The position numbers and the translations under genes were made by a program. From UHGV virus genome UHGV-1380528: DNA of 47,910 nucleotides. One strand, written 5' to 3'. This DNA comes from a virus. How positions within the stretch are numbered: the first letter of the stretch is position 1; each line of letters begins with the position of its first letter. Below are positions 3,398-15,055 of the stretch, piece after piece. The notes beneath the pieces were generated by a model. The model did no database searches. It had not been told where the DNA came from and saw only the letters and a list, made by a program, of their open reading frames with translations.

Positions 3398-3605
3398 CTT
3401 GCTTGTGGTCATCAGCAGTGTAGAGGTGGCCATTTCTGGTATTCCATTTAATGATTGCTGTCGCCGCAACCATCCAGTCATCAGTACGGCAGCCGCAATC
3501 CTGGCATACTACAAAATGCCATTGCCCATCCTTGCTCCGCATGGAATTTTCGCTACCGCAAAACGGACACTCTAGTAATTTCTCATCATTCATCATTGGT
3601 TTCAT
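3369..3605 (-). CDS. lar: Lar-family restriction alleviation protein (zinc ribbon)
   Basis: 78 aa with CPFCG...(x16)...VVCQDCGCRT motif matching Lar family (Rac prophage Lar-like) pattern. Confidence 0.55.
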   Translation of the reverse strand: MKPMMNDEKLLECPFCGSENSMRSKDGQWHFVVCQDCGCRTDDWMVAATAIIKWNTRNGHLYTADDHKQDAMERANGL

Positions 3606-3826
3606 TTTCTCAGCCCATTAATAATAAAAAATTTCATCTGGATATCACAAAGTTTACGCAAAACCATATCCCTGCGATAATCTCGCTTTTTCTTGGGGTT
3701 CAGCATTTGCTTCAACGTTCTGCGGTCAGGCTGGTTTTTCTGCCACGCATGCCTTGCGTTGTCTTCCCTGATGTCAGCCATGATTAACTGAAGCAACGTG
3801 CTGGCCTTGCTCATTTCGCCACCCAT
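3602..3826 (-). CDS. hypothetical basic protein (74 aa)
   Basis: ATGA overlap with lar start. Confidence 0.35.
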   Translation of the reverse strand: MGGEMSKASTLLQLIMADIREDNARHAWQKNQPDRRTLKQMLNPKKKRDYRRDMVLRKLCDIQMKFFIINGLRK

Positions 3827-8740: not shown

Positions 8741-9666
8741 GCGCCCTGCCATGCTTCCCGCTGCTTATCCAGTCTCTCTTGTGTCTTCTCAAGTATCACA
8801 GGCTTGCCATCCATCACCAATGCGGGTGTCTGCGAGCAGTGACAATTCCTGCGGTTTGCACCTTCGCTGTAGAACTCATCAATCTCTTCCGGGGTGTAAT
8901 ACTTCCCATGACGCGCAGCATGAGTAACGCGGGTTGTCTTCATCAGCGCTGACTGCCATAGCATGATGGTATCCATTCCCAGCGCGACCTGCGCCTCTTT
9001 CACTTCGCGCCTGTTAGCCTCGCGCAGGGTGTTGGTGATTTCAGTCTGAGCAATTGATCGCGCATAGCTTCTTGATACATCCATGCGGTTAACAATGTTT
9101 TGCTCAATCACTCCAGGCGCGTCGCCATTTGCAATGCCAGCAGTGACAACCTCCGCCACCTGCTGCCGCGTGTAATCTGAAAGCCCACCCCAGTCGTTAT
9201 ACGTGCGCGTGTACGCAAGCTGAAGCCTGTCGAGATACGGCTGAGAGTAGAGAATTTCAGCAAGCGACCTGCTGTCTTTGTATGCCGATGACAGGTCGCC
9301 AAGGTCTGAGTTTGCCTTCTGCGTCCCGGCATACATGGCATCACTGACATAAGATGAGGCCCATAACCTTCCGTGTGTGAAATCATCACCTTCCAGCAGC
9401 TGACCATCAAGGATGCGCTGAAGTTCATCAAAGAATGTCGATGCACGGTAGGCAGAGAAATCATAATAATAATTTCCAGCCTCAGCATTGCCGGTCGCCA
9501 CAGGAATCGTGCGGAACAGCTCGGCAACCTGCGATTTTAGCGTCACATATCTGGCGTCAACATCGCGCACCATCTTATTGACGCGACCCACTGCACCGAG
9601 TGGGTCTGTCAGGCTCATGCTTAATTTTGGCTGCGGAAGCCGGGCATTAATTTTGAGGAGGCGCAT
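8722..9666 (-). CDS. head morphogenesis protein (portal-adjacent, MuF/gp7-like); start uncertain (9618/9666/9783)
   Basis: Position directly after portal; ORF track start at 9783 overlaps portal by 136 nt, so an internal Met is more likely. Confidence 0.4.
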
Positions 9667-11095
9667 CGGTCTGGTCCTGCTGTTGGTCTTGCTGTGACTG
9701 TTGGTCTTGCTGCTGACCTTCCTGCAATCCGTCAGGAAGCTGCTCCTCCAGAGGTTCCATACCGACAATTCCGCGCATCTCATCGGCGGTCATCAGGGCC
9801 ATCTGGCCTGCTTCGAATACGGATTTGTTTGCAGTGGCAAGTTTAACCAGCAGGTCTGCCTTGTTCATCTCGGAAGGTGCAAGCAGGTCGTCCCACTTGC
9901 AGTAATAACCGCTCTCTGGCGCCTTATCCAGAATGCCAAAGGAAATCATCCGGTCGATGAACACCGAAATGATGTAGTCCAGCCAGTCCTCACGGCGCTG
10001 TTTGGCGCTCATGGCGTCGTCGGTTTTATCCTCATCGGATGCAAGGCGGCCAGTCTGCTGACCAAACAGGATGGTGAATGGCTTCTTAATGGATGCTGCA
10101 AACTGGTTGGCCGCAATAGTCCAGGTAGGCCCTGGGTCTGCTGGCGTCACCGAGAGAACTTTGACATCGGCGCCCATCGTGAACATCGCCGCGTCAATGG
10201 CCTCATTCAGGCGCGCCACATCCTCATTGAGCACATCTGCCAGTTCTTCCAGTGGTACACCCATTTGCTGCGCCAGAGACTGAGCGGAAACGTTGTCTTT
10301 ATTATAATTAACGTTGAGCTGTCGGCTTGCATTTTTCAGGAATCCCTCAGCGCTTGAGCCGGTTACTTTCGCCATGTCGATGAGGTGGTTATACCCGGCA
10401 CGCAGGAGCGGAACGCCGGAGTAAATGGAGCCATCCATCGCACCCTCGGCAAATACGATAATGCGGTCAGGGTGAATGCTCAGAGAACGCGTTGGTTTGC
10501 CGTCGCTGTTGCAGGCGCCGACTACCAACTCCTGATATTCGTACATCTTCGGCTGACCATAGTCTTCGCTGGCTTCGTCATTTTCCCATTCACTGACGCG
10601 GAGCTGTTCTTCCCATGCCGGAATGTAACGGACAATGGCAGCATCCTTGATGCGTTTTGTTTTCGTGGTGTCTACCGGCTCATTCCACTGCTTTCCGTCT
10701 CGGATTTGCAGGATAAGTCCGGAATAGCGGTTGATGAGGTTGCGGCGGTCTGCATCCTTGATGAATGGCGCAGCACGCTTAAACAGCTTGTTGGCGGCTT
10801 TCTCCCACGGAGTGCTTGCTTTATCATCAGCACCTTCCTGAAGGATTTGCGGCGGAGTCTGCCAGCACTTATCGAGTACGCGATTGACGCCAGCTGTTGC
10901 CGGCGCATAGCGCTCATAGGCATAGCGGAACATCTCGGCGGTGATTTCGTCAGGGTATCCGCATTCGAGCCACAGCCTGTCGTGTTTGTGGTCGATGTTC
11001 TTCCCGCCAAACTCCCGGCGCTGCCGCTCGATGAGCCTGTTATTGTTCGCCACTCGCTGCTGAATATAGGCGTTTACCGCCTCTAACTTTGACAT
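9647..11095 (-). CDS. portal protein
   Basis: 482 aa between terminase and morphogenesis genes; acidic Q/D-rich C-terminal tail. Confidence 0.7.
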
Positions 11096-11102
11096 TTCGT
11101 CA

Positions 11103-11133
11103 CCATAAAAAATCCCATCGCATGGATGGGATT
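11103..11133 (-). terminator. rho-independent terminator after HNH gene
   Basis: tcccatc-gcatg-gatggga hairpin followed on minus strand by TTTTTTAT. Confidence 0.6.
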
Positions 11134-11142
11134 ATAGCATGG

Positions 11143-11658
11143 TCAAGGGTTGTTTTTTCTTACCATTTCAGCGACCCGCTCCCTTGCTGAGATGGATACC
11201 ATCTCGGCTTCACCAATGGTCTTATAGTAACCCAGGGATTTCTGTTTGCCGTTAATGTTCATCGTCACCCTATAAAGCCTCGTCTTCTTGTGAAGAGACA
11301 CTCCAGGAACTTGTAGTGAGCTCCTCCTTGATAGCTTGCTAAACTTTTTCTCATTTATCTCTTCGCCTCCAATGTTTCTGCATCCAGATGGGGATATAGA
11401 AAGGTCACTCCACCTTGAACTGAATGGGTTTTGCGATACTGAGTACACATTCTGTCCGTCTGGAGGAAAATCACCAGTCATATATAACCATGCCAGCCGT
11501 CTTGCTGTGTAGGTTTTGCGAAGCAATACTATATGGTATCCACATGTCGACCTTGCGCCAGCGACCATTCCTTTCCTTTTTCCTTTAATCCATACAAATC
11601 TACCTGATTCAGGATGATATGATAGCCATTCTTTTAATTCGCTCTGAGTTAGCATCAT
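11143..11658 (-). mobile_element. HNH_3-AP2 homing-endonuclease-like gene, HNH catalytic motif degenerate
   Basis: FVWIKGKRKG...GYHIVLL...YTARRLAWLYMTGDFP (HNH_3 N-terminal region) plus YRVTMNINGKQKSLGYYKTIGEAE (AP2 domain); expected VDHIDG histidine motif replaced by VYSVSQ. Confidence 0.55.
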
Positions 11659-11664
11659 CCCACC

Positions 11665-11865
11665 TCAATCAACTCTACTAAGAAACAATGCGCCAACCAT
11701 AGACGCAACCAGCATAAACGCCGCGATACGCAGTGCGCCGATATTCATGATATCGCTCAACATCGGCGGCTGCCATTTTATGAACCACGCAACAGGAAAT
11801 GCTAGTGCGAGGCACGCCATGAATACCGAGAATAGCAAGGCCCACGCAAAAAGGAATTTCTTCAT
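11665..11865 (-). CDS. small membrane protein (66 aa, 2 TM)
   Basis: Hydrophobic ORF. Confidence 0.4.
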   Translation of the reverse strand: MKKFLFAWALLFSVFMACLALAFPVAWFIKWQPPMLSDIMNIGALRIAAFMLVASMVGALFLSRVD

Positions 11866-12086
11866 TTATTCACCTCATCATCAACAAGCGATCTGAACCA
11901 TGCGGGGTATGACTTCGCACCGAGTTTATAGTCAACACTCTGAATGTAACGTGCAGCATCATTCATCTTGTCGGAAAGATAATAAAGTGACTTCCTTGCC
12001 ACAAGAAGCATGGCAGCGAATATCAGCATCACAATCAGGTGTGGGTTGATGATGCAGAACAGGATTGTTTTGACGACTTTCATCAC
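11862..12086 (-). CDS. small membrane protein (74 aa)
   Basis: N-terminal TM ILFCIINPHLIVMLIFAAMLLV. Confidence 0.4.
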   Translation of the reverse strand: MMKVVKTILFCIINPHLIVMLIFAAMLLVARKSLYYLSDKMNDAARYIQSVDYKLGAKSYPAWFRSLVDDEVNK

Positions 12087-12271
12087 TCCACCTTTTCGAA
12101 TTTGTCGATGACAACTTTGATGCCTTGTGATGTTAAAGACGATACCATATCATCCCGCCAGAAATTCTCTAGCGCAGCAACTGCGTCGGTGGCGACTATC
12201 ACTCCGCTTAACTTCTCTGCCACACAACCATTATTGAGAAAGGCTTCCGCGTGAATAAAGTAAATGCTCAT
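12083..12271 (-). CDS. hypothetical protein (62 aa)
   Basis: ORF, coupled. Confidence 0.35.
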   Translation of the reverse strand: MSIYFIHAEAFLNNGCVAEKLSGVIVATDAVAALENFWRDDMVSSLTSQGIKVVIDKFEKVE

Positions 12272-12588
12272 TACTCAGCCTCATTATCAAATGCAGCCTC
12301 AAATTTCATTGGCCTTAAAGAGGATAGCTCCGATTTGTCATCATTGATGAATTGCCTCAGACTATAGTTAGTCTGCATGTTCATCCATGATTCAGGAGTC
12401 CTGCCAACCACTATAGAGAGGCGCATAGCCATACCAGCACTCAAGTCCATATTCTTGCTTGTAATCCTGCTAACGGTTGACGCTGATACGCCAAGGTTCC
12501 TTGCCATTTCCTCGCAAGTGATGCCGTATGGCTTCATAAAAACACTTAACAGGAATTCACCTGGATGCATTGGGTCTTTGATATACAT
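12271..12588 (-). CDS. HigA-family XRE helix-turn-helix antitoxin-like protein
   Basis: MHPGEFLLSVFMKPYGITCEEMARNLGVSASTVSRI...TPESWMNMQTNYSL matches HigA antidote family signature. Confidence 0.6.
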   Translation of the reverse strand: MYIKDPMHPGEFLLSVFMKPYGITCEEMARNLGVSASTVSRITSKNMDLSAGMAMRLSIVVGRTPESWMNMQTNYSLRQFINDDKSELSSLRPMKFEAAFDNEAE

Positions 12589-12752
12589 CACTCAATCTCC
12601 TCGCCATCAACCCAGCGTTGCAGGACTTCGATAAGCTGCGCGGCCTGGTGTTTGTCGATAACGACAATGTCACCTTGCTGCTCAACATGAACCGACTCAG
12701 CTCCGCGATGAATAAGCTCGACATCCTCATGCACTTTTCCATTAATAATCAT
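12588..12752 (-). CDS. small protein (54 aa, MIINGKVHEDVELIHRG...), upstream partner of HigA-like gene; not RelE/HigB-like
   Basis: ATGA overlap with upstream gene and TGATG overlap with HigA-like gene; not in ORF track (under 60 aa). Confidence 0.4.
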   Translation of the reverse strand: MIINGKVHEDVELIHRGAESVHVEQQGDIVVIDKHQAAQLIEVLQRWVDGEEIE

Positions 12753-12988
12753 AAATCACCACCCTCATCGTTATTTAACTCAACATTCCGAAAGAAATCG
12801 TTAATCGTCTTCAGGCCACTATAACCACGGCGCCGCTGCAACTCACACAGCACTTCATCATACATGCGCAGAAGAATAGCCTCATCCACATCGTACCTTT
12901 CGCATAGCGCCTCATCCGACACACCAGCTCTTGCGAGTGAGTATATTTTTTCCTTCTGCTCCCACGAAAAAGATGAATATGCCTTCAT
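12749..12988 (-). CDS. small putative HTH protein (79 aa)
   Basis: First gene of three-gene coupled operon; SWEQKEKIYSLARAGVSDEALCERYDV HTH-like. Confidence 0.4.
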   Translation of the reverse strand: MKAYSSFSWEQKEKIYSLARAGVSDEALCERYDVDEAILLRMYDEVLCELQRRRGYSGLKTINDFFRNVELNNDEGGDL

Positions 12989-13021
12989 GATGCCCCGGTG
13001 ATGTAGTTATGTCAATGCGCC

Positions 13022-13050
13022 TTGACGTAGATTATAGCATGGCGTAGATT
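13022..13050 (+). promoter_or_regulatory. promoter TTGACG-17-TAGATT containing conserved TTGACGTAGATTA motif
   Basis: -35 13022..13027, -10 TAGATT 13045..13050, 26 nt before ATG 13077. Confidence 0.55.
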
Positions 13051-13076
13051 AAAATGAAACCTCTCGGAGAAATCTT

Positions 13077-13367
13077 ATGAAATGTGTCATTTTTGAGCTT
13101 GATGGTGTGCTGCGTGATGCGGAGGGAAATGCTATTGCTGGTAACGTTGCGCTGGCTAAGTCGCTCTACTCTGCCGGGCATGATGTGCTTATCATGAGGG
13201 CAAAGCATGCGTATGAGTGGCTGCATGCTAACGATATTTTCTATGATGACATTATGGCTTCGCACCAGCAGATTGACGCTGACAGAGTGGCAATGGCGGT
13301 CGTGTCTGATGATGTTATTTATGCTGCTATGCGCAATGCGGGGATTCATTGCTGGCTTTACAAATAA
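13077..13367 (+). CDS. small HAD-like protein (96 aa), motif I ELDGVL
   Basis: VIFELDGVL resembles HAD motif I DxDGxL with Glu in place of the nucleophile Asp. Confidence 0.4.
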   Translation: MKCVIFELDGVLRDAEGNAIAGNVALAKSLYSAGHDVLIMRAKHAYEWLHANDIFYDDIMASHQQIDADRVAMAVVSDDVIYAAMRNAGIHCWLYK

Positions 13368-13443: not shown

Positions 13444-13599
13444 ATGAAAGAAATCCAATTTAGCGCAAAAAAGAATAAGTTTGGCCGAATAATGTTTTAT
13501 GTAATGGAGGACAGGAAACACTTGTATGAATTTAACACCATAGAATCCGCGATGGCTTGCGTTATCGAGCTAGGTAAAAGATCTCAGAATGCATTATGA
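13444..13599 (+). CDS. small protein (51 aa, MKEIQFSAKKNKFGRIMFYVMEDRKHLYEF...)
   Basis: GGAGA RBS; followed directly by terminator. Confidence 0.4.
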   Translation: MKEIQFSAKKNKFGRIMFYVMEDRKHLYEFNTIESAMACVIELGKRSQNAL

Positions 13600-13601
13600 A
13601 C

Positions 13602-13630
13602 AGAAGCCCTCCAGTGAGGGCTTTTTCTTA
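13602..13630 (+). terminator. rho-independent terminator
   Basis: gaagccctccagtgagggcttt hairpin plus TTTTT. Confidence 0.6.
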
Positions 13631-15055
13631 TCTCCTGCTCCTTCTAATCCATCCTGAACCACGCTGCACAATATAGTCGTTCAACGCATAGCGAACAGCA
13701 TCCCAATAGTGGTTGTATTTATCAACGATTTCAGTGAGCACAAGGCCGGTATTCTTGTCGACCTTGTGGCTGTACATCGCAGCCTCGTTTTTCATTTCCG
13801 TGCAGCGGTCGTGAATAATGATGTAGTCGCAACCCCTGAGCCACGTCACGCCATCTTCAACGCTGCCGGGCCACTTGTTGCAGGGATGAATGTCAAAGCC
13901 AGCGCGCTTGATGTGACTGATGGTTTCCGGCCTCGATGAGTCAGCATACCAGCGAGCCTTACGCGCCATCGGAAATGCCTGGTCCATTGCCGCCGGGTGG
14001 TCGGTAATCTCAAGATGAACCTTTCCATACTCACGATTAATATAAATGTTGCGCCGGTCGCCGGGTAGGTTTTCCACCCATACCTCGACCATCGCAGCAG
14101 GGTCGCCACTGAAACCGAAGTCCATACCATGATAGGGGCCATGCCATTCAGGATTGACCTCAAACGATGCAGTGCGCCATTTTCCGCCGAAGACCTGCTC
14201 ATCGCTGCGTTTGTTGAATTTACCTTCCCATATCCACATGTAGCGGTCGAAATCGACACGCTTCATCTTGTCTCGAGAACGGATTAATTCATCGGTCATC
14301 CACGGGTTATCTGTCCAGTTACATTCAATGATGAGGATTTCATCATCTTCGTAAATGCCGTCGACCATCTTGTCGTGCCACGGCTGAACCCATTGCGTCC
14401 AAGTGGCGTCGGTTTCTTTGTTAGGGTTGAATGTGACCCATATTTCCGCACCCGGGTTACGCACTGTTGGCTCAAGAATGTCCCATGATGCCTGGCTAAC
14501 GTTTTCGGCTTCTTCAATCCATGCCTTGGTGATGCCTGCAAAACCCTTCACGCCTGTCACGTTGCGATAAAGACCACGGAAGCGGAACTTTGACTTCGTC
14601 TTCTTGTGGGTGATTTTCCCGTCGATGCACCGGTACTCTTTCGCCTCACCCTTGCGCTCAATCTCATCGACCAACTCTTGATAGCTGGAGTCCTCGATGG
14701 ACTGCTGAATCTCACGGAAGCAGCCGATACGTTCTGTCCTGAACCGCGCCGACTCTGTGAGGATAGTTGAGACAGTGCGGGTCTTTGCCGAGCCGCGCCC
14801 CCCATAGACGACCTTCCATGGCTTCGGGTAAAGCAGCCTTTCGAGTTTTGCGGGGATTAAATGGTCTGCCTGCGTGGTTTTGTGGGTGACATCCTCAACG
14901 CCGTTAGCGGTCATTCTGAGGCGCTTGATGACGTTCTTCTGCATATCGCAGATACCGAAGATGGCAGATTCTGCTACATCGGTCAGTGCATCATCCACCT
15001 GCGCCTCGAGCTTTTCTATTGCTAGCGCAGAGAGGCGTTTACGAGCCATTCGCAC
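13628..15055 (-). CDS. terL: terminase large subunit
   Basis: 475 aa; Walker A VVYGGRGSAKT; C-terminal RNaseH-like nuclease region (DFGFSGDPAAMVE). Confidence 0.9.
   Translation of the reverse strand: MRMARKRLSALAIEKLEAQVDDALTDVAESAIFGICDMQKNVIKRLRMTANGVEDVTHKTTQADHLIPAKLERLLYPKPWKVVYGGRGSAKTRTVSTILTESARFRTERIGCFREIQQSIEDSSYQELVDEIERKGEAKEYRCIDGKITHKKTKSKFRFRGLYRNVTGVKGFAGITKAWIEEAENVSQASWDILEPTVRNPGAEIWVTFNPNKETDATWTQWVQPWHDKMVDGIYEDDEILIIECNWTDNPWMTDELIRSRDKMKRVDFDRYMWIWEGKFNKRSDEQVFGGKWRTASFEVNPEWHGPYHGMDFGFSGDPAAMVEVWVENLPGDRRNIYINREYGKVHLEITDHPAAMDQAFPMARKARWYADSSRPETISHIKRAGFDIHPCNKWPGSVEDGVTWLRGCDYIIIHDRCTEMKNEAAMYSHKVDKNTGLVLTEIVDKYNHYWDAVRYALNDYIVQRGSGWIRRSRR

Follow-up and report, generated by a model that had tools for sequence, protein, structure and literature searches.

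Why should a virulent phage carry an antitoxin gene with no toxin gene beside it? The question is raised by the virus genome UHGV-1380528, a stretch of 47,910 nt that was analysed in full (hereafter the window), in which a gene for a helix-turn-helix (HTH) protein of the HigA antitoxin family lies on the minus strand between the genes for the terminase large subunit (TerL) and the portal protein. An earlier sequence-only reading had taken this gene for the last member of a translationally coupled three-gene module, preceded by genes for a 79-aa HTH-like protein and a 54-aa protein and lacking a recognisable toxin. We find that the gene is a sporadic cassette in a larger accessory array and stands outside any higBA module, and we propose that it may serve the phage as an orphan antitoxin directed against toxins of the host.

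The window phage is a siphovirus of about 46-48 kb that is closest to the Klebsiella phages RCIP0103, BUCT610 and VLCpiS13d, with the Skatevirus and Buchananvirus phages of Salmonella and E. coli as remoter kin. The group, for which the name 'Skateroufviridae' has been proposed, is reported to be lytic, highly mosaic and devoid of integrases (PMC11769527), and neither an integrase nor a repressor gene is annotated in the close and fully annotated relative VLCpiS13d.

A HigA-family protein and the search for its toxin

The gene in question (cistron 3 of the array, 12271-12588, minus strand) encodes 105 aa from the ATG at 12588, or 106 aa if translation starts at an alternative GTG at 12591 (12271-12591). 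Its product matches the NCBIfam model TIGR02607, 'HigA family addiction module antitoxin', with 88.8 bits against a curated cutoff of 47.7 (E = 1.5e-25, residues 6-80), in agreement with the family assignment made earlier, and it also matches PHROG 1381, 'plasmid antitoxin with HTH domain'; the match to Pfam HTH_3 lies at the cutoff of that model. Among proteins of solved structure, the sequence matches found with phmmer include GraA (6.7e-16) and the HigA of Proteus vulgaris (5.4e-13), and the phage protein shares with them the XRE-type HTH, the HPGE motif near the N-terminus and an architecture of roughly 100 aa; its invariant residues include P6, H8, P9, G10, E11, R41 and W68. By sequence, then, the phage protein is a full-length member of the HigA antitoxin family. 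The ratio of non-synonymous to synonymous divergence (dN/dS) among the phage copies is 0.04-0.17, and this purifying selection indicates that the orphan gene is functional. We also mapped the toxin-contact residues of GraA (PMC6393540) onto the phage protein, but even true HigAs show little conservation at these sites, and this uninformative comparison was not used.

A search of a set of 5.8 billion proteins left 21 close matches to HigA after a word filter, and the bacterial context was thus taken from a scan of one genome per bacterial species, which yielded 80 loci with the closest cellular relatives of the phage protein (39-53% identity). A HigB-like open reading frame (ORF) is present in 71 of these loci, mostly on the same strand and ending at or next to the start of higA, which is the canonical higBA order. 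From 76 ORFs located upstream of bacterial HigA relatives we built a HigB profile, which covers the HigB/GraT subfamily only; it detected the HigB of the temperate Shiga toxin (Stx) phage GER2 at 2e-42. Applied in six frames to the whole 47.9-kb window, the profile returned nothing at E<=10, other toxin superfamilies being checked for the immediate neighbours only, and it matched nothing in any locus of the window phage's lineage. Scans against Pfam, NCBIfam, PHROG and PADLOC placed none of the 79-aa, 54-aa and 62-aa neighbours in a toxin family, the 79-aa and 54-aa proteins show no resemblance to RelE or HigB toxins, and structure comparison revealed no toxin fold for either of the two. Because an adjacent toxin was tested for and is absent, the phage protein belongs to the HigA sequence family and yet is no part of a higBA module. 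The earlier observation that a toxin is lacking therefore holds, and by the HigB profile and the lifestyle reported for the group (PMC11769527) the window phage is a virulent phage with a toxin-less antitoxin homologue.

HigA as a sporadic single-gene cassette

The three minus-strand ORFs of the proposed module lie, as described, at 12749-12988, 12588-12752 and 12271-12591 and overlap at ATGA and TGATG, but they are only the beginning of a longer unit. From 12988 to 11143 on the minus strand runs a tightly packed, translationally coupled accessory array of seven cistrons, in which the 79-aa and 54-aa genes overlap by ATGA, the 54-aa gene and HigA by TGATG, HigA and a 62-aa gene by TAATG, the 62-aa and 74-aa genes by TGATG, and the 74-aa and 66-aa genes by ATGA. 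Genes of this array are swapped as precise ORF-to-ORF cassettes. One junction sequence is kept in the relatives whichever genes fill the slots, namely ...GGCGAGGAGATTGAG|TGATG after the 54-aa gene and ...GAGGCTGAG|TAATG after HigA. At its 3' end a cassette has a Shine-Dalgarno-like GAGG and an overlapping stop and start (...GAG-TGATG/TAATG), and the gene that follows takes its ribosome-binding site from there; the last codons of the 54-aa gene double as such a Shine-Dalgarno sequence. Since the same junctions occur whatever the neighbours are, the coupling is a property of the array and of cassette exchange, and it is not evidence that the three genes work together.

To follow the individual genes, we mapped all array proteins onto 43 IMG/VR loci, which had been gathered through the 54-aa family, and onto further relatives from GenBank and metagenomes (L-numbers below denote individual loci). 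The 79-aa and 54-aa genes are present in 43/43 of the IMG/VR loci, the 62-aa family is matched in about 26, and HigA occurs in two, those of Salmonella phage BS5 and E. coli phage Sa179lw. The 54-aa ORF is thus conserved, a point on which the module idea depended, yet the 79-aa and 54-aa genes are found without HigA in 41/43 loci, and the supposed triplet is not a unit. With all sources taken together, the lineage has about seven distinct HigA-bearing phages (the window phage, VLCpiS13d, L012, BS5, L009, L010/L011 and Sa179lw), whereas relatives such as Tbat1_6 and RCIP0103 lack the gene. It stands exactly between the 54-aa and 62-aa genes in five loci that represent four distinct phages (window, BS5, L009, L010, L011), is present without the 62-aa gene in L001 and L004, and is separated from the 54-aa homologue in Sa179lw by the gene for a 76-aa membrane protein; the 62-aa gene, in turn, is often found without HigA, and in HigA-less loci such as L015, L026, L047, L052 and L055 its start overlaps the stop of the 54-aa gene directly. 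In most carriers HigA thus sits at a junction that otherwise joins the 54-aa to the 62-aa gene, which identifies it as a single-gene insert. Hence the 79-aa and 54-aa genes are constant in the array and HigA is a sporadic single-gene cassette that is co-inherited with no partner gene, and the three-gene module of the sequence-only reading, whose supposed partners are split in other phages by a gene for an HslV-like peptidase or for a small membrane protein, has to be given up.

The HigA gene itself is not new. Its GenBank orthologues, VLCpiS13d gp05 (93% amino-acid identity), BS5 gp72 (82%) and Sa179lw gp62 (61%), are all annotated as 'plasmid antitoxin with HTH domain'. The HslV-like gene lies between the 79-aa and 54-aa homologues in VLCpiS13d (L001, 2992-3480), KlebP_265 and VLCpiS13a, and represents another cassette insertion.

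The promoter region of the array

The HigA cassette brings no non-coding DNA with it, as the comparison of junctions shows, and has no apparent promoter or operator of its own. An extended -10 promoter-like element, TGCTATAAT, lies at 13031-13039 on the minus strand upstream of cistron 1; it was read by eye and is no more than a consensus-level match, which an automated promoter scan did not list, its -35 being weak. The element is located in the 88-nt divergent region (12989-13076) between the 79-aa gene and a gene for a polynucleotide-kinase-like (PNK-like) protein. The window reads TGCTATAAT where all 14 of the 14 relatives compared read TGCTAGAAT, and the 88-nt region is near-invariant even where the phages differ in the accessory genes that flank it. 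Over 108 nt (the 88-nt region plus 10 nt on each side), no more than two differences separate the four HigA-bearing phages from 10 of the 11 HigA-less ones, the eleventh HigA-less row having been extracted with extra flanking sequence. No HigA-specific operator was found in the array promoter, in that no difference among these 4 HigA-bearing and 11 HigA-less phages tracks the presence of HigA.

Toxin-less HigA homologues elsewhere

The lineage of the window phage is not alone in carrying HigA without HigB. Toxin-less homologues are found in accessory regions of unrelated phages, including the early-left regions of P22-like phages, the T4-like Aeromonas phage Aes012 (between denB and ndd), Klebsiella phage ZCKP1 and three Vibrio phages, and the HigB profile had no match near the HigA-like genes of any of these. 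In the P22-like lambdoid contigs L007 (3001-3291) and L008 (855-1145) the homologue is 48-51% identical to the window protein, and its neighbours in L007 are a DUF2737 gene and a NinX-like gene, with the CIII, Kil, Arf and Rad52-like genes upstream. The Stx phage GER2 carries an intact higBA pair (L143, 1223-1806), and in the Stx phage PA2 (L057, 1215-1806) higA is intact, roughly the last 22 nt of higB are left and the remainder has been replaced by a 65-aa gene; the comparison of the two illustrates one route by which HigA can be orphaned in a phage.

Among enterobacterial proteins, the one closest to the phage HigA (51% identity) is the HigA of small ColE1-type Klebsiella plasmids of 3.5-3.7 kb. 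On ColE1-type plasmids of this size from Klebsiella, E. coli and Enterobacter (L006, 287-1199; L062; L074), higB and higA are divergent and about 340-350 bp apart, unlike the canonical operon; WP_032440460.1 is a HigB of a small ColE1 plasmid. Plasmid records of HigB-type toxins number 92 for Escherichia, 33 for Salmonella, 27 for Klebsiella and 15 for Enterobacter. In a neighbour-joining tree, midpoint-rooted, without bootstrap support and to be read as a rough guide only, the HigAs of the lineage form one cluster next to the P22-like orphans, followed by the small-plasmid, Aes012 and ZCKP1 copies. The sequence-only reading had asked whether the protein might cluster with ordinary phage regulators, and the answer is in part yes: it does group with toxin-less phage copies and small-plasmid copies, apart from the main HigB-paired bacterial clade.

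The other members of the array and its surroundings

The position of the locus between the terminase and portal genes and beside small membrane-protein genes is as described earlier. TerL is encoded at 13628-15055 (minus strand; the homologue in L009 is 91% identical, with PF04466 and PF17288) and the portal protein at 9647-11095 (minus strand; the L009 homologue has PF06381), with the hydrophobic cistrons 5 and 6 downstream of HigA. The PNK-like gene (13077-13367, plus strand, 96 aa; PHROG 415, 2.4e-12) diverges from the array. On the plus strand at 13444-13599 a 51-aa ORF converges on the end of TerL, with database matches at chance level only (best E 0.085), and a strong hairpin with a T-run at 13602-13625, between this ORF and TerL, is probably a shared terminator.

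Cistron 1 (12749-12988, minus strand) encodes the 79-aa helical protein of PHROG 13301, which occurs throughout the lineage. An AlphaFold (AF2) model consists of four helices, with a predicted local distance difference test score (pLDDT) of 79. Its description as HTH-like survives as a weak likeness that does not reach significance (Pfam HTH_Tnp_1, E 0.13; best PDB fold match by Foldseek, E 0.19), and its ratio of non-synonymous to synonymous polymorphism (pN/pS), 0.02-0.1, indicates purifying selection.

Cistron 2 (12588-12752, minus strand), which encodes the 54-aa protein (MIINGKVHEDVELIHRG...) of PHROG 13627, is likewise lineage-wide. The family comprises 70 clusters at 90% identity, and its larger carrier contigs are phage contigs of 45-49 kb. 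Alignments of the window with L014-L056 (at about 3501-3680) show that the N-terminal half is hypervariable and rich in indels and that the C-terminal helix, IDKHQAAQLIEVLQRWVDGEEIE, is nearly invariant. For the C-terminal part of the gene pS is 0.315 and pN 0.076 (pN/pS 0.24), and this excess of synonymous over non-synonymous changes implies that it is the protein sequence that is conserved. AF2 predicts a fold of three strands plus one helix (pLDDT 75); the model has no significant match in the PDB (Foldseek, best E 0.38), and its match in BFVD (E 1.5e-3, 46% identity) is probably to its own family; a weak likeness to the C-terminal domain of T4 y05I-like proteins was also seen (Pfam E 0.0099, BFVD E 0.1). 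The suggestion that this protein is a non-canonical toxin fails on co-occurrence, family scans and structure alike.

Cistron 4 (12083-12271, minus strand) encodes the 62-aa protein of PHROG 26739, which directly follows the 54-aa gene in many HigA-less relatives. As a toxin partner of HigA it was considered and ruled out, being common without HigA and missing from two HigA-bearing phages. Cistron 5, the 74-aa gene of the junctions above (11862-12086, minus strand; about 73 aa, with an ATG at 12083), has one predicted membrane-spanning segment (hydrophobicity maximum 2.42 over 19 residues) and an 85% identical homologue in L003. The 66-aa membrane protein of cistron 6 (11665-11865, minus strand), of which L005 has an 80% identical homologue, is strongly hydrophobic in its N-terminal segment, and a further hydrophobic stretch can be seen in the sequence. 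Cistron 7 (11143-11658, minus strand) encodes an HNH endonuclease (PHROG 99, 1.3e-27) with a weak match to the AP2 domain. Close homologues of 75-97% identity occur only in L005, L009, L021 and L024 among the Rouf-type relatives tabulated, and this sporadic presence makes the gene, which lies immediately upstream of that for the portal protein, a likely homing endonuclease. A terminator-like hairpin followed by a T-run (11111-11133, minus strand) lies between cistron 7 and the portal gene.

What the orphan antitoxin may do

We favour, with a probability of roughly 0.45, the interpretation that the phage HigA is an orphan antitoxin used as counter-defence against HigB-type toxins of the host, over its being a plain HTH regulator. 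The protein would be made, together with the other accessory genes, from the host-type promoter of the array. As the infection shuts off host expression and labile antitoxin decays, the HigB-type toxins of chromosomal or plasmid higBA modules, which are RelE-fold, ribosome-dependent mRNases, would be freed; a dimer of the phage HigA could then bind them, and toxin-mediated abortive infection would be prevented. The device against toxin-antitoxin systems that the sequence-only reading had offered among its options may in this form still be considered, for HigA alone.

Several lines of evidence argue for this counter-defence role. The family score lies above a curated cutoff in a family whose cellular relatives are near-universally paired with HigB, and in length and architecture, at roughly 100 aa, the protein resembles the toxin-binding GraA (PMC6393540) and the HigA of P. 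vulgaris. The gene is under purifying selection and yet distributed sporadically, as a cassette in a hypervariable accessory region of a lytic phage (PMC11769527). Toxin-less copies recur in accessory regions of unrelated phages, and the Stx phages show how such a copy can arise. Plasmids of the host genera carry HigB-type toxins, and the small Klebsiella plasmids hold the nearest enterobacterial HigA. There is, moreover, a precedent for phage orphan antitoxin homologues in AdfN, which acts against DarTG1 and is, according to its authors, the first antitoxin homologue of a lytic phage in counter-defence (PMC11825919).

Other observations weigh against a counter-defence role. We found no literature on the function of a phage HigA. 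As a rule, type II antitoxins are specific to the cognate toxin, and no cellular HigA that we found is more than 53% identical to the phage protein, the nearest enterobacterial one reaching 51%; a DNA search of E. coli genomes for a donor locus gave no match. The HTH motif is fully conserved in the phage protein, so that DNA binding has probably been retained, and stand-alone HigA-like regulators such as YbaQ (2eby) exist in bacteria. In the rough tree the group of phage orphans and small-plasmid copies stands apart from the main HigB-paired bacterial clade, and a separate orphan clade is what one would expect if the protein has long acted on its own, perhaps as a regulator. Finally, early expression of the array is a prediction from a consensus-like promoter.

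The main alternative is that the protein is a plain XRE/HTH transcription regulator that has lost any link to a toxin and would bind phage or host DNA to tune gene expression during infection, and we regard such a role as a real possibility, although the odds are against it. The conserved HTH motif and family-invariant residues, the HTH_3 match and the apparently old, separate clade that the phage orphans share with other toxin-less copies all agree with it, as do the orphan HigA-like regulators YbaQ and VapI among the solved relatives and the annotation of one relative as 'transcriptional activator'. Against this, the best-scoring curated family is an antitoxin equivalog, well above its cutoff; the cassette carries no apparent promoter or operator, and the array has a single promoter region, which is virtually the same in phages with and without HigA; and a gene that is present in about 5% of the relatives, sporadic and dispensable, would be atypical of a core regulator. 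The promoter comparison speaks also against a more particular form of regulation, in which HigA would be an Aca-like autorepressor that damps the promoter of an anti-defence operon, the effectors being encoded by small variable genes that precede HigA, among them the 54-aa gene. In acr-aca operons small variable ORFs are followed by a conserved HTH gene, and the array resembles this layout, down to the hypervariable N-terminal half of the 54-aa protein. However, no change in the operon promoter region tracks the presence of HigA, the 79-aa and 54-aa genes are maintained in every IMG/VR relative when HigA is in two, and in Sa179lw another gene has come between the 54-aa homologue and HigA, which leaves this idea improbable.

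The remaining alternative retains the gist of the module, in that the 54-aa or the 62-aa protein would be a new type of toxin neutralised by HigA. In its favour the genes are adjacent and translationally coupled, and the order of 54-aa gene, HigA and 62-aa gene recurs in the five loci from four distinct phages. The same junction sequence, however, joins unrelated genes; most relatives have the 54-aa gene without HigA, the 62-aa family is far more widespread than HigA (about 26/43), and in L004 HigA is apart from the 54-aa gene and lacks the 62-aa gene, as it also does in L001. Neither protein matches a toxin family or fold. The co-occurrence data largely refute such a pair or triplet, and we give it very little credence.

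If the phage HigA does neutralise host HigB, antitoxin capture by phages would extend from an enzymatic antitoxin, AdfN, to the far commoner type II toxin-binding antitoxins. The gene would then be a cheap marker for predicting which therapeutic phages of Klebsiella, Salmonella and E. coli overcome strains or plasmids that carry higBA. A wider generalisation, that orphan HigA cassettes of virulent and temperate enterobacterial phages provide a broad-acting counter-defence against HigB and circulate as precise, translationally coupled ORF units, would go further than we think likely; if true, it would provide the first example of lytic phages that turn a homologue of type II, toxin-binding antitoxins against abortive infection by toxin-antitoxin systems. 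Should HigA prove to be merely a regulator, the finding would be routine. Either way, the notion of a three-gene toxin-antitoxin system is corrected, and the exchange of exact ORF cassettes with the coupling kept is demonstrated.

Comparison with known systems

One parallel in biology is AdfN (PMC11825919), which is likewise an antitoxin-type gene without a toxin in the variable accessory region of a virulent phage; AdfN, however, is homologous to enzymatic type IV antitoxins and its activity has been demonstrated, whereas the phage HigA is by sequence a homologue of type II, toxin-binding HTH antitoxins with a putative target in a host toxin. In sequence, parallels of defined structure are the antitoxins of higBA modules, such as GraA of P. 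putida (6F8S/6F8H) and the HigA of plasmid Rts1 (4MCX), with which the phage protein shares TIGR02607, the HPGE motif, the XRE helix-turn-helix and a length of about 100 aa. The cellular relatives sit directly downstream of higB, whereas the phage gene has no adjacent higB, with none matched in the window; it also differs in having no apparent promoter or operator of its own and in being one cistron in an accessory array of a lytic phage. The copies in VLCpiS13d, BS5 and Sa179lw are orthologous cassettes in the same terL-portal array, with array neighbours that vary from phage to phage.

With the Aca repressors the phage HigA shares a layout, a small HTH gene downstream of small variable genes in one operon. 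Unlike them, it has no co-varying operator, the genes upstream are fixed whether or not it is present, and its sequence family is HigA. The likeness to T4 Dmd and pseudo-ToxI, phage-encoded antitoxin mimics or orphans that are used in counter-defence, lies in the situation of the gene: in these cases, as with the phage HigA, a virulent phage has a gene of antitoxin type but not the toxin.

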